Below are positions 15,001-29,767 of a stretch of DNA of 64,000 nt, in pieces; positions within the stretch are counted from its first letter, which is position 1, and each line of letters begins with the position of its first letter. Origin of the DNA: a virus; IMG/VR virus record IMGVR_UViG_3300025132_000028, positions 8,664 to 72,663 of that record; one strand, given 5' to 3'. The translations under genes were made by a program, and so were the position numbers. The notes under the pieces were generated by a model. That model saw only the letters and a list, made by a program, of their open reading frames with translations. It made no database searches and had not been told where the DNA came from.

Positions 15001-18000
15001 AATACATCAACGAAGAATTATCCAAGATCTACTGATCCATTCTATGATACTGCTGTTGGTATTGCTTCGACAACCAGTACTACAATCACACTTAATGTAG
15101 GTAAATCTCCTATTCTCCCATTTGATGTTAGTGCTGCAACTTACGATGCTGCTACAGGTGTAATGGTAGTAAACATTGGTGCTCATACCTTAAAAACTGG
15201 AACAAGTGTTAAAATTAATGAAAAATCATTACTATTCACATGTTCACAGGATGATAATGCAACAGTTCATGCATATCCTCGTTCAACTACTGCTTCTCTT
15301 ACCGCAACAACTGGCACAGTTTATGATCCTGTTGTAGGTATCATGACCATCACCACTCCTGCTGCTCATGGAATGAAAAATGGTGATGAAGTTAAATTTG
15401 CTGATGGTGCGGTTTCATTCTCATGTCAATATGGTGTAGGTTCAGCACATACATGGGCTGGTGGAACAGTAACTGATGCTGTTACAATTACTGTTGGTCC
15501 TGTCCAGACAAAACATGATGTAACTAATGCCACATATAATCCTGCAACTGGTGTTATGGTATTTACCATTGGGGCACATAGTTTCACAACTGATGACTTA
15601 GTAGAAATTGGTGCTGAGAAGTTTGCATTTACTTGTACTGCTGACGGTAACGTCAAGACTAAGTATTATCCTCGTGCAACTGATCCTGCATATAATACTC
15701 CTCTATTAATTACTGCTGTAGACCAAGCTGGTGGAACAATCACAGTTAATGTTGGTGCTACTAGTGGAACTGTGGCAACCGCATATCCTCGTTCTACTGA
15801 TTTCATTAGTAATAGGTGGGTTGAAATTTCTAATGTAACCACAAAAACATTTGATGTCCAAGTATTAGATGTAATCCCTTCTACAAATACTGATGCTCAT
15901 ACATTTGTATCTGGAGTTACTAATGGCATCACATTCAAACGTGCAAAAGACCCATACTATAATACTTCTGTTGCTATTGCTGCTACAACTAGTGATACAG
16001 TCAGTTTAAATGTTGGTGTATCAACTATCGTAAATTATAATGTTTCTGATGCGAGTTACGATCCAAATTCAGGTAAAATGGTACTTACCATTGGTTCTCA
16101 TGACTTAGATGTAGGAACAAGTATCAAGATAGCAGATAACTCACTCACATTTACATGTGATAAAGATAATAATGCGACTCAGCATAGTTATCCTAGAACT
16201 CTTATAGAGACTAAAACTGTAACTGATGCTAATTACGATCCTACTACTGGTATGATGGTACTTACTGTTCCTAACCACGGATTTGAGAATGGTAGGCAAA
16301 TTAAGTTAGCAGATAATTCATTAACATTTACTTGTACTCTTGATGGAAATACTACAAATAAAACTTATCCAAGACCAACTGATCCTTTCAGTGGTAAGTG
16401 GATAAAAGTACAAAACGTCACTACAAATACTTTTGAAGTACAAACATTAGCAACTGTACCTTCCACAAACGTTTCTGTACATACATTTGTAAGTGCAACT
16501 GATGAAGGTTTATCACATAAGAGAGATCCATTCTATGATAATAATATTAATATTGAGGCAAGAACTCCAAATACTATTACTGTTAATATTGGTGCAACTC
16601 CAGATCTTCAGCAGAGTACTGGATTAACAGGACCAACATATTTCACTGATGTTCCTATCACTGGATTTAACTATACTAACGCTACTGGTGTTACAACTAT
16701 AACCGCAGTTGGTCATGGACTAACAACAGGTGAAAATGTAAAACTATCTGGTATTGCTTTGACATGTACTTCTGGTATGAAAACATATCCAGATGGTGGA
16801 ACAGGATTCTTCTTCGGAGTAACTAACGTTATTGATGCTAATACTTTCGTAACAAACACAGGTATCTCAACTATAGTACACACATATGTCAGTGGTGGTA
16901 ATGTAAGAACTGGTGTTACAAGTGACAAGTTCCCTAATCCTCAAGGTTCATTTAGTAAGATTGCTAATTTTGAATATAACAATATGACTGGTTTGGCAAC
17001 AGTAACAACCAATGGTTTCAATCAACTTGGAACTGGGCAGTTAATTAACTTTGAAAATATCCATATGCTTTGCCCAATTGGTAGTGGTACTACACATGTA
17101 TTCCCACAAGATACTGGAACAGTTGTTAATATTAGTAACTTCCAATATGATAATCAGTCTGGTATTGCGACCGTTACTACCGCAACCAACCATAATTTTG
17201 TCCGATTTAAGAAGGTTAGATTGCAGGGTATGACCGTATCATGTGCATATGGTTCTAAGACTTATCCAGATAAGCAAACTGACTTTGAATTAACGACTAT
17301 TGTTAACTCAACAACATTTGTAACTAATGTAGGAGTATCAACTCTTGCTCATACATATGTTTCTGGTGGTACTGCAGCAGAAGTTAAATTTGCTGGTCCT
17401 TACACAGTTAAGGAAAGAATTGACAGAAATACATTCACTGTTAATGTTGGTGTTTCTACTTACGTCCATACTTATGATCACTCTGGTAGAGTATCTCCTG
17501 TAAGATATACTGGACCTTATGAAGTACTTGCTATTACTAATAGTAAGGAATATACCATCAATGTTGGAAGATCTCCAATTGCTCATACTTACACTGGTGG
17601 CGGTACATCCAAACCACAACAATACACTGGTCCTTATAAGATAATTGCTGCACCTGACGCAAATACATTAAGAGTAAGAGTTGGTATTTCGACTTATCAA
17701 CACTTCTACGGTAGTGGAGGTATGATTGCTAGGTTACGCTCTGGTATTGCTGAGAAGAAACTAAATCCAGGTCCATTTAGAGTTAAAGATGTATATTCTG
17801 CTACTGAATTTACTACTGACGTTGGTATCTGTACATTTAAACACTTCTATCACTCTGGTGGTAAAGTTGGTAAGGTTAATCAATTCTTCCCTGGTAGTGG
17901 ATTCTATGGAAATAATGTTCCAGTAACAGTAGTTCCTGAAAATGGTGTTGGAAGTGGTTTAACAGTTACTACTACAGTTGGTTTTGGTGGAAGTCTTGTT

Positions 18001-19851
18001 CCTTCTCTAGATTATGTTGGAACTGGATTTACTATTGCTCCAAGGTTAGAAACTCCTGGACCAGCTTATGATGATCTCCCAGTTAGAGGTCTCTTTAGAC
18101 TAGGTATTGGTCAGACAACTGCTACTGGTATTGGATTATCTGTAACTTTAAATGTTGGTGGTATTAGTACTAGTGGTGTTGCATCAGAAACAAGTGGCGT
18201 TAAAAACTTTACAATTGGAAACAGAGGATATGGTTTCCAACTCAATGATAAAGTTAGTCCTGTTGGTTTAGTAACCGCTGCGAAAATCCTTGCTGGATCT
18301 AAGACCGTTGGTTACACAACTGAAACTGAACCATTTGAACTTACAGTTATTGATACATTCTCTGATACTTTCTACGGATGGCAATTCGGTCAACTTGATT
18401 ATATTGATGATATTACTTCATTACAAGATGGTGTAACAAAGAGATTCCCACTATTCCAAAATGAGCAGTTAGTCAGTTTTGAGAAAGCAGATGGAACACC
18501 TATTAGTTTCCCATCACTTCTTATCATCTTTATTAATGGTGTTCTTCAAATTCCAAACAAAGATTACATATTTGAAGGTGGTACTGCATTTGAATTCACA
18601 AGTCCTCCACAAGAGGCAGACCAAGTTACAATTTACTTCTATAGAGGTAGTAATGATGATGTTAATACTGTTAACGTAGTTGAATCCATTAAAATTGGTG
18701 ATGAATTAATCTTAATTAAACCAGTTGGTGTTTCTACTGTTCCAGATCAAGACCCAAGAGTTGTTAATGAAATTGTTGCATCTGATATTCTTGCAACTAA
18801 CTTATACTCTCTACAGGGTATTGATAACAACTTCAAGAGACCTGTTGTTTGGAGAAAACAAAAAGTTGATAGAACTGTTGATGGACGTATTATTCCTAAG
18901 ACTCGTGAAGCACTAGAACCACAAATCTATCCAACAGCAAGAATTATTGGTTCTGCATCTACAACTCAAGATTTCCTCTTCCTTGATAATGCTAGTTTGT
19001 TTAACTATGAAGCAGTGACTCCATCTACCAACTTCGATGGTATCATTACTCAAGGAGAAGATCCAGTTGTAGGTATTCTAAGTGTTGGAGTAAATGCTGG
19101 TACAATTTCTACAATCACTGTTATCAATGGTGGTTCTGGATATACTGGAATCGTAACAATTTCCATATCCAATCCACCTGATATCACGGTTGGTTTTGGA
19201 ACAACTGCATTAGCAACTGCAATTATTTCCAACGGTGCAGTTATTGGTGCAAATATCACCAATGCTGGTAGTGGATATGGAACAAGTGCATATGCGTTAT
19301 TACCAACTCCACCTGTAAGTATTGAAAGTGTTTCATTAATACCAACTGTAAATGGTTATGAAGGTGATATTATTGGAATTGCAACTGCCACTGGAATTGG
19401 TACCAATCTCAGCGTCAAGTTTACTTTAGATCTTCCAAATTCTCCATCAGATACTCTTAGAGATGGAATGAGAATATTTGTTAACAATACTAATGTTGGT
19501 TCAGGTGTAACTTCTATTGATACCAACAACTCTCAAGTAATTGGTATTGGAACAACTGCTTGTGATAACATCTTTAAGGTTCACCAAGTTCAGTATGATG
19601 CAGGTAACGGAATCATAACCGCTTTCTGTAATATTGATTCAAATTCAAATACTTCTGGACTTAATACTGTTGGATTTGCATACACTAATGTCGGTTTCTA
19701 CAGTTGGGGAATTGTTACTGGATTTAGTAGAGGAACTGCTCCAATTGCAATAAATGTTGATGGAAATACGTTCTCTGTTGGTCTCGGATCATACCCACTT
19801 TTCCAGAGAAGAGGGTTTGGTTTAAGGGGTACTGGAGGAATCACAAAATAA
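1..19851 (+). CDS. g7: Giant baseplate wedge initiator gp7-like structural protein, 5' truncated (frame is open from position 1; >6600 aa)
   Basis: Frame 1 is open from base 1 to TAA at 19849-19851. It lies directly upstream of gp8. It contains the YHYH-like segment (SPIIGWAYDGNPIFGP...DLDVHNGR...FPYYIG), the IQDNNYYQNLSY..K...HPTG.K motif and many GxGY/GIGT repeats typical of cyanomyovirus gp7. Confidence 0.85.
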   Translation, partial: DVQVASGPISEVEIFTRQGEEFYKIPLFVGFNEQSLVSGEFFVPGFTKNTLLASANTRVINVDSTVGFSRSGSFFIDSLGITVTYTDKNLTQFLGCSGLTSDLPVGSEVRSTVIAYGYEGGDSTKKVEMRITGVLGEFEAQGNNYYLDVGNEIYIKSIGENISPPADPLTLPTYKQRIFNSWIYNIATRYEVAEITGSTLSVSDKFDKSNLRTGDSVEILARGTNTITTTAVVTVIDSNTLQLSNTTGITTDRNWDIRRVISRATSSNDLIEFGNQTIISNIQNAYVTKNKVNESMYVATQGLPSFSFSVDKVFVDFRGQDVGIGQIDQLVSFQTNLPFVTGDEIVYEALSGSTALEGLVSGTRYFIWVNPAANNQLKLANARSFIEVSKFIELKTGTGTHRLTLASQYGKNIQPQKILRQFPLKPSVSSGLAQTTSYGPTGMLINGIEILNYKSNDYLYYGPLQSVELVSGGSDYDVINPPKITVSNPGVGGTVAVINPVLSGSLKSLYLENRESYDIDQVFGINIEGGNGEGASGEITLSQDYTEANFNAKDILANGGVDIPANTLTFIGEHNFKTGQKIVYNPNGNQPLGVAITLGSDDNTQYDAENTLQSGVAYFANVINTTTIKLHETEDDANAGLSTVGITTFNTLGIHKFRSFDFKNKIQNISVVTEGSGYKKRTYETKTTGISTGTNCFIIKQHGFLDNEEVIYQATNSIRELTTETNYRIIRINADAFRLALSETDVNRGRYIFLSDVGSGIHTVKYPDITATVVASIGGTTVSIPCEPDVRGEIIGAYLSEPGSNYGSKVLNFEKPPLITVSSGTGAQFQPLISNGVITQVQIIGAGSNYTSAPDLTVTGPTGSGAQLKAKLNANGKVSTVEVISGGLNYDAEDTAIVVRSVGQSGIIESTVRPLTVNLHEKYSTDDFLNAETQYPIQYASLAYSTDLQTDFGDSLAQRSPIIGWAYDGNPIFGPFATRDPKQNTGITTYVRSGYQLASNLVPNRPTAGEYPAGFFVEDYKFMGTGDLDVHNGRWFVSDDFPDGIYGYVATLEIDPGTGLPRASFPYYIGDTYIAPRASQSISQDDDINALDLSRNTYPYRLKSLNASYDFVIEADELIGQEGVIDSVFTGGVEELEIVEAGDLYKVGNTLLFDEEGTNGNGVSAQVSFIKGKSVTDLQSTNVQFDEVTFQKTGDTEITGIIQPNHDFNNGEVIEIFNTNTDIKGLQGFHVVGVASERAILLDPVKAGAVGVVTDLIVSRIPGNVSGGSSIKFSDGEVAKVLNVIKGKNLVRIERTGIASFSASGTISYLQDRFTIASDAPQFVSEFFPKKFFNPKQTVGVGTTVGNYETLSYTENNIAQTRVVEHGSIFLNKHPFLDGQKALFVKKSGQLSLGVATAIGIGTTATLVADSLPRSGVEQEVFIIYKSINTIGIKTQKNGAELFFTSDGSDDDGYFVQGIGTAVRGSVLQPTTTVTTTQAHGLKIGDTVNFNVIANQEVGLGASSRVRIELNSEGLIIVDSQGISSTGVNTSTNRISISGNNFRTGDRVYYEPKSEVIGGLGTGRYYIYRDSPENFRLCETYEDSVADVPVIVSLTSIGGTSHNFGLINPKVEIPSRSTTVFDLQNYELNGYNFKIYYDQGFNSEFVGTGQSTSAEVGDVLDAEDRVISIGNTYARLDVNNNTFCPKILYYNVTKDGTPLIPDNDVKENNTIKYVDSAYTGMFTITGIGTSAVGVGTTTFSFAIAKNPEQVSYAATEGRRFYATGAVGPEGPIDQISLLSSGEFYRKLPRFLGVDSENGDNSTIKPKSTRIGQINSIQLVNEGFNYSSDTTLRPIVDVPTVTTIRDFNTVGTISILSNGKNYISAPKLELVDRFVGTKVPGANIVARINENSGSIVDTEIAANPVGLQNREYRLYSVNNTNGIVITKSESNPTRSGIVTFTISTPVLGFSSPPFAVNDEVWIEGFSKDSGSDGYNSSDHLYNFLKVNNVVTTNPFSFEVDYSNYTFNVGLGVSDTQNFSRVIGKEELPTFSIGLQQASFDKNEKLLVNNAETDLQVISFDATAENIKFVGTAPIVPDDIIIGAKSGSQAKVVEILRFDGVYSVEAETDKTIEGTSDSGKLNSSAQVIQDNNYYQNLSYTLKTEVSYEDCIDAVNNSVHPTGLKNFVDSQLVTIGKNAGIQTSTTVTNATVDLVEEVRVDDQYYFDIGRDVNIATRSEVELSNEIELENAKLSDYFESITNRVLNIDDISSQFSNISNPNTLDLFENIYRYPFNFISNRFLVQITSEDRRDFQVSEITILQDGTNTYYAEPTFKKLHSTPQEIGTLEGSVDTENSQVRLRFFPADPFDKNYDIKVLNQFYNTESTLTGIGTTAFGFAALMGSDAEIGPSTSKSFVSVAATNFDYLHSQVEVETVSSGQKETMFVELKAIHDGNDSYMSEYNIILSDGSFGGTNAGAFGTFGTTYDPSGNNFSIEFYNARPSEFVNLKARTLGFGNTTGTTNRDYRFLATGMIPNNERSAQYYTEYQTVGVGSTANFAGIKSDIQSVNQCTMVVGYGRTVSAFQYMFLNDQLGDSLYFSEYPVLSVGNTTGLGTVFAKYDGEKAVLVFTPEAGINDKMFMRTFNEVLYLELERNIVNPLEYGAVVEETFNTTYTGLNFRNIFEFPMLWNGYPIFSKTFNPSNTSALNLATGQFTIKNHFFASGQELEYLPGGTFVGVVTAPMTLANGNPLPSPVYAIKDNEDQFRIGLSTVAALAGIGTTLGSVGAGNLHEFDSTGKLSRSLIAIDGLVQKPLTWSPITRTLENNTTLSGSSLGLGKTSTFMAVSGISSIVLGDLFEINDEFVLVEAVGVGTTTTDINSSGIGTINLCKIQRGSVGTAASFHANGSIIQKYTGSYNFSRNNIFFTGAPNGGKSSDEASTTGIPEAGSSFNGRVYLRKNYDSNKIFDDISGQFTGIAKTFTLRSEGEDITGIGSEGGFGIFFVNNMFQKPQTPNNFNANLFIRETGGQTDLTFTGILNESGDPIVSATDINQNGLPRGGVVVTLGSSEGKGFANLGNPSIGASINHAGEVYKILTAPTTQGMSSITNYVYDHTIGLSTVTTSQAHGLEAGDSIDFVGIGFTCVPTKSGITTGVFPYTRGQKKTVVDFLYDNKTGMATVTTLERFGILEVGEEVFFNGIGFTCIGQKFAQISQKAGITTTLFPCRAGIAKTISAFNYDNQSGIATITLATPHRYVEGERLFIENLNLKCGYGANITNAIYDAPTGLTTITTATPHKFSKGDKVRLQGLEFSCAGYGITFAISTFEYNNSTGITTITTPSPHGALPGEQIKLTGLGFTCPKVNVGTPIGFTYEPLTGLSTVTFASNHGLTNGDKISIGASSIVFTCTLDGGATTHPYPRPTDFAYNKYLPISGVTTNSFQVNVGTGGTGTFPHTFVSATTNAIKTLNYLGVTTSTFPDGTQGNQFRVTKVLSPTKILTNVGITSIPHVYTEGGEVQVGVTSHIYPTGKYGFEFIVSSTPTRNKFRVNVGPSTIAHTYVSGGTALLGLSTTIYPSSQSGIGHSITDFIYDNTTGLSTITVARNSIPFALGDRVNFAGLGFTCPSGFAGLTSTIFPQSLGRKYNIGTVFYNNATGLATVTTTAAHDFKVTDSLDLQNLLFNCSSAYAGVTTHRFPDYVDEPNRSYRVLRIVDPNTIWVDVGVSTIVHTYNLGRHTWVGGTASNAVQSGGNYVHTFLSAVTNGVTSDVGNLPNPITNVAYTPNTGNMVITSATHLLTTSNTLTIADNALSFTCTMDGNTATKTYPRSTDPVSGQTITITGTTTNTITINVGASPIVNHDVTNATYDNDTGVMVLTIGAHTLTTGTSIKIANGALSFTCEDDNNVTTKTYPRASDPYYDTAINIDAVGADTITLNVGINTRGTVSAIKKTGPYEVTRLLAPRPYDVTNAIYDPVVGIMTVTVGNGHGISVGETVDIGTNALTFTCDMDSTGSQKTYPRNLIKTFTATNAIYDPVVGVTTITVAGHGMDDGCWVKLADESLSFICGYGVTTHIFVSATTNAVNVQSGAESGNEKTPNAATYNASTGLLTLGFAAAHGMSTSDTITLDFNSLTFTCAADYHATTHTYPRVTDPIAGVTTAVTVTSGTEFTLNVGDSLGSKSAKSYPRSSDPISGEWIQVSNTTTDTFEIQSLSDNSTPSTNIDAHTFTSAVTGGITHKVDKSFEQPVSVVGVGNTTIDLQVGRSPIVNFNVTNATYEPTTGVMELTIGSHAFAVGQHIKLADNSISFTCTLDGNTLVKSYPRASGTGINAGTPDYAYQKSLEISAVTSTTITINVNSSVGLSSISDLSAHTFDSATAGAVIAGGNYAHTFVGVATGAITKGGPRFNCNVGITTYKHNYTPSIGVGEVRKQNFGGVDDTFIVTGIVGKKSFTIDAGISTYTHFYDVDTKNAISKKKLRTDSFIVDTIYSDRSFRTNVGVSSYRHVYDPKPSKEPGGISSITGMTYNTSTGIATFTVPNHGAIGGELISISGLALTCPGGTGITTHIFPDPNGLSRNISTANYNNFTGIMTVTTNVGHGVTFVGQFVKLENLGFACTGGAGGSHTFVSAATSAVQTGGNYTHTFVPQFGLTPDTALYDPVTGIMTVTNQQLTVSDAIYDPVSGEMTLTVGVHRLTNYDSVRLDTESISFSCVFEGKLQTKAYPRSNGNDYVYDKDLPIIRYTSDTITVNVNGGKGAISHAVPHTFMSATSKGVKVNHGLRNGDYIKFDDYAVTFTCNKDGNATLHPYPRPTDPLSGTFTQVTVVDENKFSVGVLTVTPSTDTSVHTFVSALEGGIKKEVINSGGDHPHTFVGTATSAIQSGGNYVHTFLSAVANSVTSNVGNLPNAVTDVVYTPSSGDMVITSAAHLLTGSNTISIANNGLSFTCTMDGNTATKTYPRSTDPISGIATAITATTTDTFTINVGASPIVNHDVTDATYDAATGVMVLTIGAHTLPTGTSVKIANGSLPFTCTMDGNTSTKNYPRSTDPFYDTAVGIASTTSTTITLNVGKSPILPFDVSAATYDAATGVMVVNIGAHTLKTGTSVKINEKSLLFTCSQDDNATVHAYPRSTTASLTATTGTVYDPVVGIMTITTPAAHGMKNGDEVKFADGAVSFSCQYGVGSAHTWAGGTVTDAVTITVGPVQTKHDVTNATYNPATGVMVFTIGAHSFTTDDLVEIGAEKFAFTCTADGNVKTKYYPRATDPAYNTPLLITAVDQAGGTITVNVGATSGTVATAYPRSTDFISNRWVEISNVTTKTFDVQVLDVIPSTNTDAHTFVSGVTNGITFKRAKDPYYNTSVAIAATTSDTVSLNVGVSTIVNYNVSDASYDPNSGKMVLTIGSHDLDVGTSIKIADNSLTFTCDKDNNATQHSYPRTLIETKTVTDANYDPTTGMMVLTVPNHGFENGRQIKLADNSLTFTCTLDGNTTNKTYPRPTDPFSGKWIKVQNVTTNTFEVQTLATVPSTNVSVHTFVSATDEGLSHKRDPFYDNNINIEARTPNTITVNIGATPDLQQSTGLTGPTYFTDVPITGFNYTNATGVTTITAVGHGLTTGENVKLSGIALTCTSGMKTYPDGGTGFFFGVTNVIDANTFVTNTGISTIVHTYVSGGNVRTGVTSDKFPNPQGSFSKIANFEYNNMTGLATVTTNGFNQLGTGQLINFENIHMLCPIGSGTTHVFPQDTGTVVNISNFQYDNQSGIATVTTATNHNFVRFKKVRLQGMTVSCAYGSKTYPDKQTDFELTTIVNSTTFVTNVGVSTLAHTYVSGGTAAEVKFAGPYTVKERIDRNTFTVNVGVSTYVHTYDHSGRVSPVRYTGPYEVLAITNSKEYTINVGRSPIAHTYTGGGTSKPQQYTGPYKIIAAPDANTLRVRVGISTYQHFYGSGGMIARLRSGIAEKKLNPGPFRVKDVYSATEFTTDVGICTFKHFYHSGGKVGKVNQFFPGSGFYGNNVPVTVVPENGVGSGLTVTTTVGFGGSLVPSLDYVGTGFTIAPRLETPGPAYDDLPVRGLFRLGIGQTTATGIGLSVTLNVGGISTSGVASETSGVKNFTIGNRGYGFQLNDKVSPVGLVTAAKILAGSKTVGYTTETEPFELTVIDTFSDTFYGWQFGQLDYIDDITSLQDGVTKRFPLFQNEQLVSFEKADGTPISFPSLLIIFINGVLQIPNKDYIFEGGTAFEFTSPPQEADQVTIYFYRGSNDDVNTVNVVESIKIGDELILIKPVGVSTVPDQDPRVVNEIVASDILATNLYSLQGIDNNFKRPVVWRKQKVDRTVDGRIIPKTREALEPQIYPTARIIGSASTTQDFLFLDNASLFNYEAVTPSTNFDGIITQGEDPVVGILSVGVNAGTISTITVINGGSGYTGIVTISISNPPDITVGFGTTALATAIISNGAVIGANITNAGSGYGTSAYALLPTPPVSIESVSLIPTVNGYEGDIIGIATATGIGTNLSVKFTLDLPNSPSDTLRDGMRIFVNNTNVGSGVTSIDTNNSQVIGIGTTACDNIFKVHQVQYDAGNGIITAFCNIDSNSNTSGLNTVGFAYTNVGFYSWGIVTGFSRGTAPIAINVDGNTFSVGLGSYPLFQRRGFGLRGTGGITK
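9235..17875 (+). repeat. Intragenic array of split and nested ~100-aa beta-rich modules within gp7
   Basis: Recurrent motifs YD/NxxTGxxTxT..HG, FTC..D...YPRxTDP, TITxNVG and HTF/YVSA/GG occur many times in the translation. Confidence 0.9.
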
Positions 19852-19900: not shown

Positions 19901-21457
19901 ATGCCCGCTATAGTATCAGACCAATTCAGGATCCTAAACGCAGCCAATTTCGTGTCTGATGTTTCAGATTCAAATAATTCGTATTATGTCGTTCTTGGAC
20001 TCGCGAACCCAACTCAGGTTGGTTTTGGTAGGAGTTCCAATTGGGATAATTCAACCCCGTATCCAGTAGATGATTTTAATTATTCTAATCATGTTCGCGA
20101 TACCATGCTTTTTGGTAAGAAAATTACCAAAGACAATATCAGAAGATTGATTAGAAGAGTTGACTGGACGCAAGGTACAATTTATGAAATGTACCGACAC
20201 GATTACAGTATTCAAGCTCCATCTCCTGTAACCAACTCTACTAGATTATATGATGCGAACTATTATGTAATGAATTCAGACTTCCAAGTTTATATTTGTT
20301 TACAGAATGGTTCTTCAGGTATCAATACTGTTGGTAATCAATCTCTTGATGAACCAACTTTTACTGATCTTGAACCATCTAAAGCGGGTAATAGTGGAGA
20401 TGGTTATGTTTGGAAATATATGTATACTGTCTCACCTGGAGACATCATTAAGTTTGATACATTAGAATACATCCCGATACCAAATGATTGGGAAACGGTT
20501 ACGGGTCCTGTTGCATCTGTTAGAGATAATGGAAACTCGGATGTAAACCTGAACCAAATTAAAACAGTTTATATTGAAAAACAAGGTGCGGGATATGGTA
20601 TTGGGCAAAACCAACCCGTTGATATTCTTGGCGATGGAACAGGAGGAAAGGCAGTTCTATCTGTAGATTCTTCAGGTAAAGTTACTAGTGCTACTGTATC
20701 ATCTGGTGGTAGTGGTTATTCTTTTGGTATTATTGATTTATCTTCAATTAATACTGGATCTATTACTGACAGAGCATTCTTAATTCCAATCATCCCACCA
20801 ACAAAAGGACATGGTTTTAATGCATATAATGAATTAGGTGCTGACAAAGTTTTGATTTATGCTCGTTTTGACGACATTGGTGATTTCCCAACTTCTACAA
20901 AATTTGCACAAGTTGGTCTACTTAAGAATCCACTTTCTGTTGGTTCAACATCTGTACAGTCTTCAAATTCATTTAGTTCTACAAATGCGATCGTCTTAAA
21001 TACAATTTCTGACGTCACGCAAATTTCAGTAGGATCTAAAATTTCTCAAACTATTGGTACTGGTGTTACTGCCTTTGGATGGATAACATCTTTTGACAAT
21101 ACAACAAATGTTGTTAGATACGCTCAAGATAGATCTTTATACTTTAATCAGTCTACAACAAATCAAGAAGATGACCCATTTGCTTCTCGTCAATCTTTTA
21201 TAAAACATGCTTTTACAAGTGCTGTAGCGAACATCACGATTGGTTCTGCAAGTTGCACAATCAACACAGGATTTACTGGTATTAATACAGTAGGTACTTC
21301 AGGTGCTCTAGTCGATCTTGGAATTAACTTCACAAGTGGTCTTTCTGGTCCAGAAATTGAAGTTTCATCTGGTGAGCTTATATATATTGATAACAGGCAA
21401 ACCGTTTCGAGGAACCTGAGACAAAGAGAAGACGTAAAAATCGTACTGGAATTCTAA
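19901..21457 (+). CDS. g8: Baseplate wedge subunit gp8
   Basis: MPAIVSDQFRILNA start, VYICLQNG...DGYVWKYMY, and C-terminal SGELIYIDNR...QREDVKIVLEF; synteny after gp7. Confidence 0.9.
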   Translation: MPAIVSDQFRILNAANFVSDVSDSNNSYYVVLGLANPTQVGFGRSSNWDNSTPYPVDDFNYSNHVRDTMLFGKKITKDNIRRLIRRVDWTQGTIYEMYRHDYSIQAPSPVTNSTRLYDANYYVMNSDFQVYICLQNGSSGINTVGNQSLDEPTFTDLEPSKAGNSGDGYVWKYMYTVSPGDIIKFDTLEYIPIPNDWETVTGPVASVRDNGNSDVNLNQIKTVYIEKQGAGYGIGQNQPVDILGDGTGGKAVLSVDSSGKVTSATVSSGGSGYSFGIIDLSSINTGSITDRAFLIPIIPPTKGHGFNAYNELGADKVLIYARFDDIGDFPTSTKFAQVGLLKNPLSVGSTSVQSSNSFSSTNAIVLNTISDVTQISVGSKISQTIGTGVTAFGWITSFDNTTNVVRYAQDRSLYFNQSTTNQEDDPFASRQSFIKHAFTSAVANITIGSASCTINTGFTGINTVGTSGALVDLGINFTSGLSGPEIEVSSGELIYIDNRQTVSRNLRQREDVKIVLEF

Positions 21458-21466
21458 TCTGAGACA

Positions 21467-24400
21467 ATGCCACAAAGAACCAATTTAAATATTAATCCAT
21501 ATTATGACGATTTTGACGCAGAAAACAATTACTATAGGGTATTGTTCAAGCCTGGTTTTCCAGTTCAGGCTAGAGAATTAACTACATCTCAATCTATTCT
21601 TCAGAATCAGATTGAGAAATTTGCTAGACATACTTTCAAAGATGGATCTGTTGTAATACCTGGTGGAGTTAGTTATGATTTTGATTATCAATCAATTCAG
21701 ATTGAATCAACTTTCCTTGGTTTGAATGTTGGTGATTATATTACATCTTTTATAGGAAAAGAGATTAGAGGTCAACAAACAGGTCTTGAAGCAAAGATTG
21801 TAAATGTTCTTCTTTCTTCGCAAACATCGAGTGGTAATATTACTCTTTTCATAAAATATACTTCTGGTACATCTGGTAATCAAGTAGGTGCTTTCCAAGA
21901 CGGAGAGACTTTAATTACTGAAGAAAACGTTGTATATGGAAATACAACTATTTCTAGTGGAAACACTTTTGCAGTTACTATTGCAACTAATGCAGCACAA
22001 ATAGGTTCTGCTGCTCACGTAGATGCTGGTACTTTCTTCTTCAGAGGTTATTTTGTTGATGTTAAAAAGCAAACAGTAGTTTTAGACGAAGCCGACGATA
22101 CCCCTTCATACAGAGTTGGTCTTCAAATTAGTGAAGAGATTGTAAACGCAAAGCAAGATAATACTTTATATGATAATGCAAAGGGTTTTACTAACTTTGC
22201 TGCTCCTGGTGCTGATAGATTTAAAATCCAAACTACTTTAGTTAAAAAGAGTCTTACTGATCTTAATGACTCAAGTTTTATTGAACTCTTAAGAGTTGAC
22301 GAAGGTGTACTTTTAAATGTACCCAATAAACCAGCGTATTCTGTTATTAAAGATTATATTGCTGAAAGAGATTTTGAGAGAACTGGTAACTTCTTCGTTG
22401 AACCTTTTGATATTACTTTCCATGAGTGTTTGAATAATAGAAGAGGTAATAATGGTCTGTTTTATGATAATCAAGTAACTGATGAAGGTGCTGTTCCTTC
22501 TAACGATTTAGCTTGTGTTTCTGTAGGTTCTGGTAAAGCATATGTAAAAGGTTATGATATTGATAGACCTGTTGCAACAATTTTAGATATTCCAAAACCA
22601 AGAACAACTCGTAAAATTGAAGATGCTTTTGTTCCATATAATCTAGGTAGTCAAGTTCAAGTAAATAATGTTTATGGACATCCTGCAATTAAGAGAGAAG
22701 TTCAATTATACAGTCAAAGATTAGGTGCTAATGGAACTACTCTTGCGGGTGAAAGAATTGGTGATTGTAGGTGCTATTCTTTTAATTTAACTTCTGGAGA
22801 ATACTTATCTCCTAAAACTCCATTTACTTTATTTGTTTATGATGTAACATTATATCAGAAGTTACATCTTGCTAATCCTCTCAGTGCTGCTCAACTTCCT
22901 GCTGGTGCATATATTACAGGTCAATCTAGTGGTGCATCTGGATATGTAACCGCAGCTGGTACTGGAAGTGCCAAAGTCTTTGTAAGAGATACAAGTGGAA
23001 CTTTCATCCAAGGTGAAACAATTTATATTAATGGCATTAAAGAGAATGCTAGAAAAACTTTAGATGTAAGAGTATATGATAGTACTGATGTAAAATCTGT
23101 TTATCAACAAGCTTCTGCATTAGGTCTACAGGCAAATTTCTATGGTGATGTACTTTTAGTAGGTCAACCTGTTCCTGGATTTAAAGAAACAGACCAATTT
23201 AATATTACTGCTGCTGGTAAAGTATCAATTAACAGTAAAACTCTTACTGGTATTAAAACAGATTCTTTACTCGCTGTTCAGCAAGTTGGTTTTACAACAA
23301 CCACTTTGTATAGAGTAAAAGATATTGCAAAAACTGGACTTGAAGTTACTATAGAAGCAACCACAGATGTTGTTGGAATTACTACTGGTGCTCTTCCTGC
23401 AGCGAATATTACATCAACAATTATTGCTTTTACACCTATTGTACAAAATATTAATCAGGATGAGATGTATGTTTCTCTTCCACAAAGTGATGTTGCTACA
23501 GTAGATTTACAAAATTCAAGTCTTGAGTTTCATACCCAACTTACTGCATTAGCAACTAATGGTTCTGGTGAAATGACAATCACTAATACCAGTGGTGTTC
23601 AAGGTGCTTTATTTGAAGCATTTGATGAAGAAAGATATAGTATTGTTTATTCTGATGGTGTTATTGCAACAATATCATCAAATAAATTTGAATATAACAG
23701 TGGTTCAAATACAATCACAATTAAAGGTTTAAGACAATCTCAAACTAACGTTGTTGCCAATGTTGTGATGAAGAAACCTCAGTTTAAGGCAAAGAGTAAG
23801 GTTGTTAATCGATCACAAGTTGTAAATATTACTAGATCTGCAAATAAACAATCTGGATCTACAGCAAATAATAGTTTAAATGATGGTTTGTCATTTAGTA
23901 CGTTTTTTGGAACTAGAATTCAAGATAAGAAAATTTGTTTGAATTATCCAGAGGTTATTGAAGTTCTTGCTATTCATGAATCTTTTGATTCTAATGCACC
24001 TACATTCGATAAACTAAATCTCACTTCTGTAGAAAATGTACAGACTAGTGCTATTATTGGTGAAAGTATTATTGGTAATGATAGTAAAGCAATTGCAAGA
24101 CTTGTAGCAAAACCTGGTGCTGCTCAAGTAGAGTTTGTATATTTAACTGATGCTAGATTTATTCTTGGGGAAGATATTTCTTTTAATGAGAGTGATATTG
24201 TTGCAAGTATTGATAGTATTGTTAATGGAAGTTATAAAGATATTACTTACAGATATTCATTAAGTAATGGTCAAGAACATGCGTTCTCAAACTATGCTTC
24301 TCTTAGTCGAAGTGCTAGTAGTGGTCAACCTCCAACTAGACAGTTAAAAGTTGTATTTGATTATTACTCTGTTCCTTCTGGTGATGATGGTGATGTTGTA

Positions 24401-27400
24401 ACTGTAGATAGTTACCCACAGTCTGTGTTTAGAGGATTGATCCCAGATATGGAGTCTGAACGGGATGGTTCTACTACTGGTGGTACAAACGTCTTAGACT
24501 TTAGACCTGCTGTTGCCATATACGATCCAGCAACTGCATCAGCACCTCCATTTAGTTTTGCATCTAGAGACTTTGGTGCTCTTAATAAACCAGCTCTACC
24601 TCTAGCAGTTGGGGAAGGATCTTTAGTAAGTTTTGAATATTACTTATCAAGAAAAGATAAACTATTCTTGAATAAAAATGGTGATCTATCTATTGTTCAA
24701 GGTGTGCCTGGTGAAGGTGAACCTGACGATTTAGATGCTGACCATATGTTATTGGGTACTATCAGTTTACCTGCATATACAGATGAAACTGATTCTATTG
24801 ATATTGATTTAGAAAACCCAAGAAGATATACTTTTGCTGATATTGCTAAATTAGATAATAAAATTAGTGCTCTTGAAAATTCAGTTACTCTTTCTATGTT
24901 AGAAGAGGAAACAAAAAACGTTGACATTAGAGATGCAACTGGTAAAGCACGTTTCAAAAATGGTTTCTTTGCTGATAATTTCCAAACTAGTGAACAAATT
25001 GATGATGACCACCCAGATAATAAGTGCGAACAGACCGATGAAGGTAGCGGTACAATTACACCATTACCATCAAACGCATCTTTAAAAACATTAATTGTAA
25101 CTAAAGATGAAACAACATCTGCTACTTACGATAGTACAACTGATTATGACCTTTTAGATGATAATGTTGTTAAGAGGGGTGACCTCTTGATGCTTAAGTA
25201 TGAAGAGAAAGAGTGGGTAAAACAACTTGCAGCAACTGGTGTAAGTAATATTAACCCATTTAATGTTATTACATGGGCAGTTGCAATTACACTAAAACCT
25301 GATATTGATAGTTGGTCTAGAAAAATTCAAACTCAACAAACTGTAAAGATTAAAGGTAAACAAAAAACAGTAAAGGTTGTTACTAAGCGTTATAAGTGGG
25401 TTCGTACTGGTTACTGGTGGGGCTGGTGGGGTCGTTGGCGTTGGTATTGGCGTCGTTATAGATGGAGATGGTGTCATTGGAGTTGGGGGTACTACTGGTA
25501 TCGTCGTGGTTGGAGATATGGATGGAGATGGCGTTACGGTTACTACAGATATCGTTGGAGATACGGCTATTGGGGCTGGTGGGGCTGGGGCAACCGTTGT
25601 ATGCGTCGAGTTGCTACTTACACTACTACTTACAAGAAGGTTGATGTACCAACACCAACGCCTGCAGATAAGGTCGAGAAGATCAAGTCGCAAGCAGAAG
25701 AGTATATGCGTTCTAGAAACGTACTTGTTGATGCACTGTCTTGTAAACCAAAGACTAGGTATTACCACTTCTTTGATGGAAGTAATACTTTGGATATTGT
25801 ACCAAAACTTCTTGAAATCAAGAATGTTACAGCAGCATTCAAAGTTGGTGAAACTGTAATTGGTAAGAGTGGGAAAGCAAGAATTAAGTTCAGAGTTTGT
25901 ACACCTAACCATAAGAGAGGTAAGTATAACAAACCAGATAGAACTTATAGCATAAACCCATACAATACTGCACAGAATATTCCTACGACATATTCTAAGT
26001 CTTCGACAGTCTTAAACGTAGACGTCGCTTCGATGGCGGAGGAAGCACAAGGTTCATTCAGTGGATATGTTGTTAATGGCATGTTACTGACTGGTCAACA
26101 GTCTGGTGCGACTGCAAAGGTAAGTCAGATTCGTTTGGTTTCTGATAAGTTTGGTGATATTCAAGCAACGTTCTTTATCAGAGATCCTCTTGCAAATCCT
26201 GCACCTCCAAACAGATTTAAGACAGGTACTAAGCAATTTGTTCTTAATACTGATATTAACAACACTAAAGCAGTTCCTGGATCTACCAAGATCTCTTCAG
26301 GACAAGCAGATTATAAGTCTACTGGTGTTATTGAAACTTGGAGAACGACAAAGTATAAGGTTTACTTCCATAGAGACCCTCTTGCACAGTCGTTTACAAC
26401 AGATGCTAGTGGTGTATTCCTTACTAGTCTTGACGTTTGGTTCTATACTAAGGATGAAAAACTCCCAGTATTCCTTGAAGTCAGACAAATGCAGTTGGGT
26501 ATTCCAACCAGAAATGTTTTAGAATATTCTGAAGTAAAACTTGATCCAGACCAAGTTACATTGGTTCCTGACACTGGTGCATCTGCAGGTAATAACACTT
26601 ATAAGACCACATTTACATTTAAGTCTCCTGTATTCTGTTCTCCAAACACTGAATTCTGTGTCGTTCTCTTGTCTGAGTCTGATTCTTATGAAGTCTTCCT
26701 TGCAAGGATGGGTTCTAAGACACTCAACTTTAAGGCACTAGGATTAGGTCAGAACTCTCAGCACAGTAAACAGTGGGGTGCTGGTTCTCTATTCAAGTCT
26801 CAGAACGGTTCTATTTGGACTCCAACTCAGGAAGAAGATTTAACATTCAGACTTAAGAGAGCAAACTTTACAGCTACCTCTGGTACTGTTTATATGCACA
26901 ACCCAGATCTTGATGTAAGTAATAATTACATTAGAAGACTCGATCCCGATTCTTTCCAAGTCGTTTCTAGATCTGTAACTGTTGGTATTGATACAGTCAC
27001 AAATGGAACTACCATGGCAGGTATTCTTACTACTGGTAGGAAAATTGGTGAAGCAACTTCTTCTGAAGGTGGTACTTCTGGTAAGTCTTATGTCTTTGGT
27101 ACTATTGAAAGTACTGGTGGTCCTATTGACCTAACATTTGGTTCTTACGCAGGTATTTCTACAGTTGCTATTGGTGGTACTGATTACATCGATGGTCAAT
27201 ATAATAATGTTGATCTGTTCGCTGTTACTGGTAATGGAGTTGGTGCAAAAGCAAACCTCTTTGTTGAAAATGGAAACGTAACTGCTGCTGGTGCAACTAT
27301 TGTAGATGCAGGACATGGTTATACTGTGGGTGATATTATCGGTATTACAACTGCTGATGCTGGTGGTGCTGGTTCTCAATGTCAATTGTCAATTGAAGCA

Positions 27401-28903
27401 ACTAGTGGTGTTGATAGATTATTCCTAGAAGATGTACGTGGTAACACTTTTGTTACTAGTGAAAAACTTGTTTACTTCAATGATTCTGGAACTAGAGTAG
27501 CACTTGCAAACACGACAATTACATTGTCCGCAAGAACTGGTCCTACCTCTAATGAAGGTGACATGATAATTGTTTATCTTCCAAATCATGGAATGTATAG
27601 TGGATCTAACAAGATTACTATTAGTGGATGTAAGGATCTTGCAGATGCAACACAACTATCTGCTGATGTTACTTCTACTAGCACGGTAATTTCTGTTGCT
27701 TCTACCATGGGTTATGAAACATTTGAAGGAATGCCAGTAAGTGCAACAAATCCAGGTTATGTATTAGTTGACGATGAACTTATTTCTTACACTGGTATTG
27801 GTGCGGGAACATTAACTATTGGTACTAGAGGTGTTGATGGTACAGTTTCTACTCCACACACTAACGGAGAAGAAGTTGACCTGTATGAACTACAAGGTGT
27901 ATCTCTCAGAAGAATTAACACAACTCATGACATTGACCCTTATGAGTTTGATATTGATAACTTCTATATCAGAATTCAGAGAGATCAAAATGGTACAACC
28001 AGAAATGATGATGGAACATTGGTTAATGCTCCACTCCTAAGTTTCGCTGATAGTGGAGCTGCTGGTGGTGATGAAATCGATACCACAACTAACTTGTTGT
28101 ACTCTAGCATCAAACCTAACTACAGAGTTATTAAACCTACTGGTAAGACTTCTGTTACTGCACAAGCCAGAACAATCACAGGTACAAGTCCAAGTGGAAA
28201 TGAAGTCTCTTATGTAGATAAGGGTTATGTAAACATTGATCTTGGTAATGTTAATGAGTTTAGAGATGTAAGAATGATTGCTTCTAAAGTTAATGAAGAC
28301 ACATATAACACTGAACTATTCAGGAATAAGTCTTTCACAACTGCGATCACATTACAAACAACAGATACAAATGTATCTCCAACTATTGACTCAACGGTTG
28401 GTGCAACTGAATTTGAATTCTTTAGACTTAATGATCCAGTCAATAATTATGCCCTAGATGGTCGTGTTAACATTGCTGGTGAAGATCCACATGCATCCGC
28501 ATACGTAAGTAAGAATGTTTCGCTTGAGAATGAATCACAAGCACTAAAAGTGATTATTGAAGCATACAGAAGTGACACATCTGATTTCCGTGTTGCATAT
28601 CAACTCCAAACAAGTGCTGAAGGTGGTGCTGCTCCATGGCGTCTCTTCCCTGGTTTTGATAACTTGAAAGACACTGATGGTAACGGATTAGGTGATGAAG
28701 TTATTACTCAATTGAATAATAACGGTAAGCCAGATAGAAAGATCAGAGCATCTGCTCCTTTATCTGATGAATTCATCCAGTATGAGTTTAATGCTCAGAA
28801 CTTAACTGAATTCACAGGATTTAGAGTCAAGATTATGATGTCTGGTACAAATGCTGCTGATCCTCCAAAGTTCAGATCAATCAGAGCGATTGCATACACA
28901 TAG
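21467..28903 (+). CDS. Large virion structural protein, VrlC/DUF4815-like (2478 aa)
   Basis: N-terminal NINPYYDDF...VLFKPGFPVQARELT..QS.LQ.Q, APGADR, RFKNGFFADNF, DPLAQSF and SLFKSQNGS.WT motifs characteristic of the cyanophage VrlC-like protein. Confidence 0.85.
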   Translation: MPQRTNLNINPYYDDFDAENNYYRVLFKPGFPVQARELTTSQSILQNQIEKFARHTFKDGSVVIPGGVSYDFDYQSIQIESTFLGLNVGDYITSFIGKEIRGQQTGLEAKIVNVLLSSQTSSGNITLFIKYTSGTSGNQVGAFQDGETLITEENVVYGNTTISSGNTFAVTIATNAAQIGSAAHVDAGTFFFRGYFVDVKKQTVVLDEADDTPSYRVGLQISEEIVNAKQDNTLYDNAKGFTNFAAPGADRFKIQTTLVKKSLTDLNDSSFIELLRVDEGVLLNVPNKPAYSVIKDYIAERDFERTGNFFVEPFDITFHECLNNRRGNNGLFYDNQVTDEGAVPSNDLACVSVGSGKAYVKGYDIDRPVATILDIPKPRTTRKIEDAFVPYNLGSQVQVNNVYGHPAIKREVQLYSQRLGANGTTLAGERIGDCRCYSFNLTSGEYLSPKTPFTLFVYDVTLYQKLHLANPLSAAQLPAGAYITGQSSGASGYVTAAGTGSAKVFVRDTSGTFIQGETIYINGIKENARKTLDVRVYDSTDVKSVYQQASALGLQANFYGDVLLVGQPVPGFKETDQFNITAAGKVSINSKTLTGIKTDSLLAVQQVGFTTTTLYRVKDIAKTGLEVTIEATTDVVGITTGALPAANITSTIIAFTPIVQNINQDEMYVSLPQSDVATVDLQNSSLEFHTQLTALATNGSGEMTITNTSGVQGALFEAFDEERYSIVYSDGVIATISSNKFEYNSGSNTITIKGLRQSQTNVVANVVMKKPQFKAKSKVVNRSQVVNITRSANKQSGSTANNSLNDGLSFSTFFGTRIQDKKICLNYPEVIEVLAIHESFDSNAPTFDKLNLTSVENVQTSAIIGESIIGNDSKAIARLVAKPGAAQVEFVYLTDARFILGEDISFNESDIVASIDSIVNGSYKDITYRYSLSNGQEHAFSNYASLSRSASSGQPPTRQLKVVFDYYSVPSGDDGDVVTVDSYPQSVFRGLIPDMESERDGSTTGGTNVLDFRPAVAIYDPATASAPPFSFASRDFGALNKPALPLAVGEGSLVSFEYYLSRKDKLFLNKNGDLSIVQGVPGEGEPDDLDADHMLLGTISLPAYTDETDSIDIDLENPRRYTFADIAKLDNKISALENSVTLSMLEEETKNVDIRDATGKARFKNGFFADNFQTSEQIDDDHPDNKCEQTDEGSGTITPLPSNASLKTLIVTKDETTSATYDSTTDYDLLDDNVVKRGDLLMLKYEEKEWVKQLAATGVSNINPFNVITWAVAITLKPDIDSWSRKIQTQQTVKIKGKQKTVKVVTKRYKWVRTGYWWGWWGRWRWYWRRYRWRWCHWSWGYYWYRRGWRYGWRWRYGYYRYRWRYGYWGWWGWGNRCMRRVATYTTTYKKVDVPTPTPADKVEKIKSQAEEYMRSRNVLVDALSCKPKTRYYHFFDGSNTLDIVPKLLEIKNVTAAFKVGETVIGKSGKARIKFRVCTPNHKRGKYNKPDRTYSINPYNTAQNIPTTYSKSSTVLNVDVASMAEEAQGSFSGYVVNGMLLTGQQSGATAKVSQIRLVSDKFGDIQATFFIRDPLANPAPPNRFKTGTKQFVLNTDINNTKAVPGSTKISSGQADYKSTGVIETWRTTKYKVYFHRDPLAQSFTTDASGVFLTSLDVWFYTKDEKLPVFLEVRQMQLGIPTRNVLEYSEVKLDPDQVTLVPDTGASAGNNTYKTTFTFKSPVFCSPNTEFCVVLLSESDSYEVFLARMGSKTLNFKALGLGQNSQHSKQWGAGSLFKSQNGSIWTPTQEEDLTFRLKRANFTATSGTVYMHNPDLDVSNNYIRRLDPDSFQVVSRSVTVGIDTVTNGTTMAGILTTGRKIGEATSSEGGTSGKSYVFGTIESTGGPIDLTFGSYAGISTVAIGGTDYIDGQYNNVDLFAVTGNGVGAKANLFVENGNVTAAGATIVDAGHGYTVGDIIGITTADAGGAGSQCQLSIEATSGVDRLFLEDVRGNTFVTSEKLVYFNDSGTRVALANTTITLSARTGPTSNEGDMIIVYLPNHGMYSGSNKITISGCKDLADATQLSADVTSTSTVISVASTMGYETFEGMPVSATNPGYVLVDDELISYTGIGAGTLTIGTRGVDGTVSTPHTNGEEVDLYELQGVSLRRINTTHDIDPYEFDIDNFYIRIQRDQNGTTRNDDGTLVNAPLLSFADSGAAGGDEIDTTTNLLYSSIKPNYRVIKPTGKTSVTAQARTITGTSPSGNEVSYVDKGYVNIDLGNVNEFRDVRMIASKVNEDTYNTELFRNKSFTTAITLQTTDTNVSPTIDSTVGATEFEFFRLNDPVNNYALDGRVNIAGEDPHASAYVSKNVSLENESQALKVIIEAYRSDTSDFRVAYQLQTSAEGGAAPWRLFPGFDNLKDTDGNGLGDEVITQLNNNGKPDRKIRASAPLSDEFIQYEFNAQNLTEFTGFRVKIMMSGTNAADPPKFRSIRAIAYT

Positions 28904-28946: not shown

Positions 28947-29408
28947 ATGTCATCACCTGATCCTGACTTATCAGCTTTTAATGAATTTGCCTTTCAAACT
29001 ATCTTGGATCAATACCAAGAAGATGAAATTTGGAAGATGTATAAAGATCAGCAAAAACTTGATGATCAATTAAAAGAGGAAGAAAAAGAAATTGAATACA
29101 TTGAAGAAGCAAGAGAAGGCGATGAGGAATTTTCTTTAATGAATTTTACTGAAGAATTTGATATCAGACCAGTAGCAGATAATCCTGGTCTTTATAAAGA
29201 TATGAGTACTGGTGCAGTTTTAAATATGGACAATACTGCTTTTAAGATGTATCAAACTAACAAAATAAGATCTGAAGCAGTCCAAAGAAAACAAGAAGAG
29301 ACAAATGAAAAAGTTTCTAAAATGGATCTTGAAGTGGAAGAAATGAAAGGAGATCTTAAAGAATTGAAAGGTTTAATTAGAGATTTGATAAAAGGACTAA
29401 ATAACTAA
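28947..29408 (+). CDS. Hypothetical protein (acidic N-terminus, C-terminal coiled coil)
   Basis: 153-aa ORF downstream of a late promoter; PGLYKDMSTGAVLN...LKELKGLI pattern seen in cyanophage genes at this position. Confidence 0.7.
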   Translation: MSSPDPDLSAFNEFAFQTILDQYQEDEIWKMYKDQQKLDDQLKEEEKEIEYIEEAREGDEEFSLMNFTEEFDIRPVADNPGLYKDMSTGAVLNMDNTAFKMYQTNKIRSEAVQRKQEETNEKVSKMDLEVEEMKGDLKELKGLIRDLIKGLNN

Positions 29409-29428
29409 ACGGTATATATTTTTTTCTG

Positions 29429-29767
29429 ATGGCAGCAGTTTACAATAAAAATATTGTTATTAATACTGGTTCAACTTTCAATGAGACCTATAACTTAAGA
29501 AATCCAGATGAGACTTCTTACAGTTTAGTTGGTGCTGGAATGAGTGGTATTTTGAAAAAACATCCTGGTGCTAGTTCTGGAGTTGGTTTTGCAATGACTT
29601 CTACTGATCTTGCAGGAGGAGAATTAAAATTGACAATGACCTCAACAGATACTAACAAATTAAAAGAAGGTCGTTACAGATATGATGTTTTGGTCACAGA
29701 ATCTGGTGGAGATAAAGTCCATATTATAGAAGGTTCAGCAATGGTAAGAGCAGGAGTAACCACATGA
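29429..29767 (+). CDS. Small putative virion structural protein (Ig-like fold)
   Basis: 112-aa ORF with LKEGRYRYDV...IIEG motif, preceded by CTAAATA at 29397-29403. Confidence 0.7.
   Translation: MAAVYNKNIVINTGSTFNETYNLRNPDETSYSLVGAGMSGILKKHPGASSGVGFAMTSTDLAGGELKLTMTSTDTNKLKEGRYRYDVLVTESGGDKVHIIEGSAMVRAGVTT

Follow-up and report, generated by a model that had tools for sequence, protein, structure and literature searches.

A 75-residue segment rich in tryptophan, arginine, tyrosine and glycine lies within a large baseplate protein of the VrlC/DUF4815 family, which is encoded by 64,000 nt of DNA from a marine cyanophage that is uncultured and abundant (positions 8,664-72,663 of record IMGVR_UViG_3300025132_000028; this whole stretch is called the window, and the coordinates given are window positions). 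The segment (25385..25609, plus strand; protein residues 1307-1381) is real, is in frame and is under purifying selection, as its composition, its pattern of substitution and its presence in 10 further contigs show. Structure prediction places it as an insertion at a hypervariable loop of an immunoglobulin (Ig)/macroglobulin-like beta-sandwich in a homologue of the baseplate arm scaffold gp117 of phage 812. The extreme composition has no described counterpart, and the insert occupies a variable site of a known baseplate protein family. We tentatively propose, with a probability of about 0.4, that the loop serves as a multivalent aromatic adhesive pad for host lipopolysaccharide (LPS) or glycan at the baseplate periphery.

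Exact counting gives 21 W, 19 R, 14 Y, 11 G, 2 K and 2 C, with V, T, H, S, N and M occurring once each and D and E absent, corresponding to 28% W and 25% R. These counts agree with the hand count of an earlier note on this DNA (about 21 W, 19 R and 14 Y and no acidic residues). The segment is read in frame within a single open reading frame (ORF; 21467-28903, plus strand), and its translation is exactly the peptide quoted in that note. The segment holds 21 of the 29 Trp residues of the whole VrlC protein; at the Trp rate of the remaining protein (8/2403), the binomial probability of at least 21 W in 75 residues is 1.6e-34. Among the other ORFs of at least 150 amino acids (aa) in the window, the maximum is 4 W in any 75-aa stretch. 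The 225 nt of the segment comprise 91 G, 68 T, 38 A and 28 C, and both GC content and GC skew are 0.54 at 25400-25599, whereas the surrounding bins more than about 200 nt away have a GC content of approximately 0.30-0.37, consistent with the G-rich island in AT-rich DNA described earlier. Bins further downstream of the segment reach a GC content of 0.44. The coding strand also carries GGGG runs at 25414-25431 and 25567-25599; no canonical set of four G3+ tracts was noticed, without a dedicated G-quadruplex analysis.

The two ends of the segment carry similar W/G units, YWWGWWG (segment residues 10-16; 25412..25432, plus strand) and YWGWWGWG (residues 61-68; 25565..25588, plus strand), which correspond to DNA repeat family D1. 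The segment had been described as roughly symmetric; the likeness of the ends holds, but the units form a direct repeat and not a palindrome. The N-terminal unit is invariant in a sister lineage, and MAFFT matches it to the W-x2-W-x3-W motif of the family; the GWWGWG core of the C-terminal unit is also invariant in the sister lineage. The ends are more conserved than the middle, and in the most variable stretch (residues 47-55; 25523..25549, plus strand) the replacements are confined to W, Y, R and G. Aromatic residues tend to lie two positions apart (lag 2) and to alternate with cationic ones at odd lags, and Gly recurs at turn-like intervals; the aromatic period-2 pattern is compatible with beta-strands. 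The segment is not a microsatellite, as the only tandem rows found in it are three short ones, a pair of 9-nt duplications and a single unit of 12 nt.

The segment can be read through in every forward frame and in one reverse frame, including a Gly/Val frame (+1) and a Pro/Thr frame on the minus strand. These alternative frames are open because the segment is poor in A, and the choice of frame therefore had to be tested. The overlapping ORFs span 25377-25859 (+1 frame, 160 aa, Gly/Val-rich) and 25292-25912 (minus strand, 206 aa, Pro/Thr-rich). The further carriers, six IMG/VR and four metagenome contigs, contain the same 451-aa region at 94-96% identity, with equal length and no indels. Together with the window they yield 8 distinct sequences of 1353 nt and 4 haplotypes of the 225-nt segment. 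Amino-acid changes among the haplotypes are confined to W, Y, R, G, H, S and N, and several of the replacements need two or three base changes (TGG/TAT, AGA/TGG, and AAC or CAC/TGG), while 10 codons show synonymous variation only, including Arg AGA to CGT or CGC. The Nei-Gojobori ratio of nonsynonymous to synonymous differences (pN/pS, all pairs summed) in the W/R/Y frame is 0.22 for the segment and 0.12 for its flanks, and the values for the segment in the other two forward frames are 0.98 and 1.42. The homologues thus do not conserve the Gly/Val frame, and an overlapping gene in the other frames or strand is ruled out, pN/pS being about 1 or more in the other forward frames.

The earlier note had allowed that compensating frameshift errors might have produced the peptide. 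In such an artefact, the Gly/Val frame would be the true one, masked by compensating frameshifts or by errors of assembly; alternatively, the stretch would have expanded recently by slippage, without selection. The multiple open frames and the small 9-nt duplications would fit this explanation, but no indels are found in the 11 contigs of separate assemblies or in Logan contigs, synonymous change is concentrated in frame 0, the tandem rows are few and short, and the Trp frame is kept in a lineage of approximately 67% identity. Because of the lack of indels, the low pN/pS and the retention of the Trp frame, we regard the W/R/Y frame as real and an artefact as almost certainly the wrong explanation. 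A variable region of a diversity-generating retroelement was also rejected, as the haplotype differences are not limited to adenines and the record holds no second copy; in the 72.6-kb record, a fragment approximately 38% complete, 25300-25700 is present as a single copy, with no retroelement template. No phage tRNA-Trp was found, as there are no tRNA genes in the window.

The stretch is present in 20 public runs from 15 studies, and the 90% cluster of the clade that carries it comprises 145 member sequences. Logan contigs of two DNA runs match it without gaps, one of which (X4) may be the window's own source. Metatranscriptome Logan contigs cover 25100-25535 and 25607-25900 with 0 gaps, and DNA carry-over in the RNA library is possible.

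The sister lineage (P0005, locus L028) shares 67% identity over the 451-aa region and carries a W/G/H/Y-rich version of the segment at the same place. In the alignment, 16 of its Trp residues coincide with Trp residues of the window, and most of the Arg residues are replaced by His, Gly, Ala or Trp. The net charge of the best 75-aa stretch is +18 in the window and +6 in the sister lineage, which has even more Trp. The richness in Trp, a residue with a G-rich codon, is maintained in DNA of approximately 35% GC. This comparison suggests that the selected feature is the Trp skeleton and not the positive charge. The loss of Arg with retention of Trp makes a strictly cationic mechanism like that of indolicidin less likely and singles out the aromatic part. 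Cys 30 (25472-25474) and Cys 72 (25598-25600) of the segment are kept in all four haplotypes, one of them with a synonymous TGT/TGC change, and the sister lineage has Gly and Ala in their places; the pattern fits a disulfide pair, as seen in only two lineages.

The protein that hosts the segment (21467..28903, plus strand; 2478 aa) matches Pfam PF16075 (DUF4815) with an E value of 3.2e-59 and 201.2 bits (cut-off 30), and phrog_358 aligns over its full length. The sole PDB sequence match is 9euf together with related 812 baseplate entries (phmmer E 2.3e-29, four collinear blocks), labelled DUF4815 domain-containing protein / ORF65. The identity as a VrlC/DUF4815 protein proposed in the earlier note is therefore well founded. 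The phage 812 protein gp117 (PDB 9euf; A511 homologue) belongs to the same family, and its N-terminal, central and distal blocks align with the window VrlC; it differs in its length (1152 aa), in its Gram-positive host (Staphylococcus) and in having only a short stretch, KRFWRHNESYYG, at the site in the HMMER alignment, with no Trp-rich insert. As described in the 812 baseplate paper, gp117 is the arm scaffold protein, its N-terminus joins the wedge module, and its linkers contribute beta-strands between dimers of the gp8-like arm segment protein (PMC13433997). Two earlier papers describe VrlC as a component of two-layered baseplates that takes the place of T4 gp7 in cyano- and pelagimyophages (PMC4621102, PMC7029224).

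In cultured cyanophages and IMG/VR relatives, the site of the segment is flanked by the conserved blocks NVNPF...L.P..D.W and (Y/F)MRSRN. Among 60 homologues matched by this motif pair, the length of the site ranges from 57 to 431 aa (median 138), and its composition varies as well. The common layout is a helix (EGNY...), a W-x2-W-x3-W-x-G motif, a Thr/Ser/Arg-rich low-complexity stretch, QSRTG and a return strand. The three Trp residues of the motif are invariant in all 33 sequences of an alignment of homologues that keep the subdomain (A4), and the whole subdomain is absent from several cyanophage homologues. MAFFT places the window sequence GYWWGWWGRWRW on the Trp motif of the family. Judged from these alignments, the segment is an extreme elaboration of the W-x2-W-x3-W-x-G motif and of the low-complexity stretch that follows it in the relatives keeping the subdomain. 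Because the length of the site varies widely and several cyanophage relatives are without the subdomain, the loop is accessory and not needed for assembly.

We scanned 152 stored family proteins, of which 150 were listed from a search of 1.84 billion representatives and two were P0004 and P0005. Only P0004, which represents the window's cluster, and P0005 contain at least 22 W in 75 aa. In P0011 the same site is W/R-rich, with a count of 14 and with acidic residues present, and the remaining family proteins have at most 8. Milder W/R-rich stretches occur at the same site in P0011 (approximately 1143-1225), P0039 (approximately 1600-1650) and P0155 (approximately 1035-1060), and because of these milder versions the Trp/Arg enrichment at the loop has arisen more than once or is graded. 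Of 68 sites across the family, 32 carry a positive charge, 32 a negative charge and 4 are neutral, ruling out a general cationic character, and the median aromatic fraction of the site (0.079) is no higher than in the remainder of the protein. The conservation of composition for which the earlier note had suggested aligning the homologues is thus absent at the family level, where the site is neither cationic nor aromatic.

Structural models of window residues 1041-1640 (31-row alignment) and of a 421-aa part of P0084, an ancestral-type homologue (33-row alignment), were built with AlphaFold2 (AF2). The window model has a mean predicted local distance difference test score (pLDDT) of 72 with confident flanking domains, and the segment (model residues 271-343) is predicted as coil with pLDDT below 50. 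The predicted flanking strands (protein residues 1280-1296, 1299-1312 and 1382-1395) reach a pLDDT of only about 55-69. The first two form a Lys/Thr/Val-rich predicted beta-hairpin upstream of the segment (protein 1280-1312; 25304..25402, plus strand; DSSP strands 240-256 and 259-272 of the model, pLDDT about 58-69), and the third is a predicted return beta-strand downstream, VATYTTTYKKVDVP (25610..25651, plus strand; DSSP strand 342-355). The P0084 model has a mean pLDDT of 85 and shows the same long beta-ribbon ending in the helix and Trp motif. The earlier picture of a hairpin tip with strand-like arms is therefore retained in part: long predicted strands flank the segment at the end of a beta-ribbon. 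Because the pLDDT is below 50 over the whole segment, neither a hairpin nor a knob is shown. A complex prediction for two copies of residues 1290-1396 (5-row alignment, without controls) gave a score of 0.00 (mark 0.42) and counts neither way.

Residues 30-378 of the P0084 model superimpose on 9euf chain residues 590-777 with a VIA Z of 10.9, a root-mean-square deviation of 2.6 over 110 residues and 34% identity, and the window model matches 9euf with a VIA Z of 10.7 over 193 aligned residues. The next-best unrelated fold matches are macroglobulin/Ig-like sandwiches, with Z 8.1 for the window model and Z 6.7 for the P0084 model. The 812 paper describes an 'elbow' domain, a double beta-sandwich at the arm periphery directed at the neighbouring arm, and a part near it thought to attach RBP2 (PMC13433997). 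Because chain residues 590-777 are the first of two consecutive beta-rich blocks (590-777 and 791-959), the sandwich hosting the segment is probably the counterpart of this elbow, by analogy with phage 812.

We favour a role of the loop as an adhesive pad because Trp and Tyr stack on sugars, Arg/Trp peptides bind membranes and the interfacial free energy is strongly negative. Aromatic residues, Trp most of all, stack on carbohydrates (PMC6152320, PMC5726637), and membranes are bound by Arg/Trp peptides (PMC4053608). On the Wimley-White scale, the interfacial free energies of the residues add up to -34 kcal/mol for the segment and to -59 for the sister lineage's best stretch of 75 aa, and the family median for the best stretch is +2.7. 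The loop would be a solvent-exposed adhesive of low specificity, present once on each arm should its copy number match that of phage 812. Its Trp and Tyr residues would pack against sugar rings and enter the interface of the LPS or outer membrane, with phosphates or carboxylates contacted by Arg or, in the sister lineage, by His. Together these contacts could help to fix the baseplate to the cyanobacterial surface around contraction.

Several points weigh against an adhesive role. We infer the exposure, the ligand and the timing of action of the loop. The predicted structure of the whole segment has a pLDDT below 50, and we likewise infer the mapping to the elbow, the text of the 812 paper being without residue ranges (PMC13433997). 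As the site is not systematically cationic and its aromatic median is unremarkable, an adhesive role cannot be generalised from the relatives. Such hydrophobicity would suit burial of the loop against another virion protein equally well. Prochlorococcus as the host is an assumption of the earlier note.

Burial within the virion is the core of a possible, if doubtful, alternative, in which the aromatic loop would act as a docking element or latch in a protein-protein contact, plugging into a trimeric fibre or receptor-binding protein or gluing neighbouring arms until baseplate triggering. By analogy, the 812 paper describes two docking loops of the arm scaffold that hold tripod-protein trimers, with hydrophobic residues fitting the trimer crevices (PMC13433997). 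The position of the elbow towards the neighbouring arm and the suggested attachment of RBP2 nearby would also suit a latch, as would the conservation of Trp but not charge and the better conservation of both segment ends than of the middle. On the other hand, the 812 docking loops have 28 and 40 residues and are placed further N-terminal than the site, at docking loop 1 and in the bulge domain (PMC13433997); several cyanomyovirus homologues without the subdomain still build baseplates, and no partner is identified. The conserved ends and variable middle would also fit a self-contained spacer, a rigid aromatic-stacked beta-hairpin or meander with cross-strand Trp pairs and Arg-Trp cation-pi contacts that would tune arm geometry or stability and need no external ligand. 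The lag-2 aromatics and the odd-lag alternation of aromatic and cationic residues resemble amphipathic beta-strands, Gly recurs at turn-like intervals, direct W/G units stand at both ends, and the two Cys residues are kept together in the four haplotypes or lost together in the sister lineage, as in a disulfide pair. The site also tolerates almost any length and composition across the family. However, the segment is not folded by AF2, and it is hard to see why 28-40% of a rare residue would be kept as a mere spacer when relatives manage with a Thr/Ser-rich insert or with none. Trp is moreover a costly residue, and a spacer is rather unlikely.

Two further explanations give weight to the membrane. 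In one, the loop would be a built-in membrane-active virion module of the (RW)n type, inserting into the LPS or outer membrane of picocyanobacteria with irreversible anchoring or local destabilisation; we consider this unlikely. In the other, the loop would perforate the outer membrane in the style of (RW)n antimicrobial peptides, or would bind DNA or RNA, both of which the earlier note had raised. The composition resembles that of Arg/Trp antimicrobial peptides and the net charge of the best 75-aa stretch is high, but the sister lineage has only one third of this charge with more Trp, and nothing places the segment near the genome. The segment is also part of a peripheral arm protein, whereas the piercing parts of known contractile tails are the central spike, hub and tube (PMC13433997). 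Perforation or nucleic-acid binding is thus highly improbable.

Comparison with known systems reveals partial likenesses. Arg/Trp-rich antimicrobial or cell-penetrating peptides include indolicidin, tritrpticin, the Trp-rich domain of puroindoline and synthetic (RW)n peptides. The segment shares with them a W+R composition without acidic residues and alternating R/W runs such as RWRWYWRRYRWRW, and from its sequence it would be expected to have, like them, a strong affinity for anionic lipid or LPS interfaces. These peptides are free and of about 6-20 residues, whereas the segment has 75 residues and is a loop inside a structural protein of 2478 aa; the likeness is in composition only, and the sister lineage is mostly without Arg. 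The aromatic platforms of lectins and carbohydrate-binding modules and the YG/choline-binding repeats (PF01473) are likewise enriched in W, Y, H and R with many YG/WG dipeptides, but choline-binding repeats have about 20 residues and the units of the segment are irregular, with 3-19 residues. A Pfam scan of the whole VrlC protein at E up to 0.01 gave DUF4815 only and no PF01473. Trp-zipper hairpins and bovine ultralong CDR-H3 'stalk and knob' loops provide another comparison, as the segment may resemble them in a long beta-ribbon with an unusual tip projecting from an Ig-like sandwich, and cross-strand Trp pairing is possible; this likeness is architectural only, given the low pLDDT of the segment.

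Searches for related sequences found no separate homologue of the segment. A segment-only word search in longer proteins, over 5.8 billion clusters, gave 1 match among 12 candidates, a fragment of the same gene, and no small homologous protein. A look-alike search of the ESM Atlas with a 91-aa stretch gave no usable match, and the surrounding 356 aa, compared with PDB sequences at E up to 10, matched at chance level only, e.g., L23 and hyaluronidase. An IMG/VR DNA scan for WWGWWG codons found at least 119 stretches; among the matches listed, a long VrlC ORF is present in two loci (L028 and L049), and the others are off-frame short ORFs. In the literature searched, we found no description of a tryptophan-rich baseplate or cyanophage feature and no baseplate structure of a T4-like cyanophage.

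The gene directly upstream of VrlC (19901..21457, plus strand) encodes a gp8-like baseplate wedge/arm-segment protein (PF09215, E 4.6e-15; phrog_438, E 1.8e-148), and a gp8-like arm-segment gene is also adjacent in phage 812. Neck, terminase and sheath genes lie downstream of VrlC. Between VrlC and the neck genes (28947-29767) are two small genes, assigned to phrog_473 ('virion structural protein') and phrog_3304 ('tail fiber assembly'). Because only these two are present, the 'host recognition cluster' that related phages are described as having in the interval from vrlC to gp14 is very short here. Directly upstream of the gp8-like gene is a giant ORF (106-19851, plus strand; 6581 aa), which may begin before the listed TTG. 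The first part of its product contains a YHYH domain (PF14240, E 1e-23) at approximately residues 837-1018, with no further Pfam match at gathering score.

Many phages, cyanomyoviruses and pelagimyophages among them, have large two-layered baseplates built by arm scaffolds of the VrlC type, and the clade that carries the segment is widespread in marine metagenomes. A loop with 28-40% Trp that is under selection in an AT-rich genome is among the most extreme natural aromatic sequences traceable here. If the loop is a membrane-active module, its one copy per arm would stand in functionally for the short tail fibres that these phages lack, and it would be the first case in nature of a sequence resembling an antimicrobial peptide that serves as a structural device for adsorption; very long natural membrane binders rich in Trp could then be drawn from it. 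A latch or spacer role would make the loop a natural setting in which to test Trp/Arg 'sticker' chemistry within a folded machine. If the favoured adhesive role is correct, the loop would provide a fibre-independent contact between phage and host surface, with a bearing on host range and on resistance through cell-surface changes.

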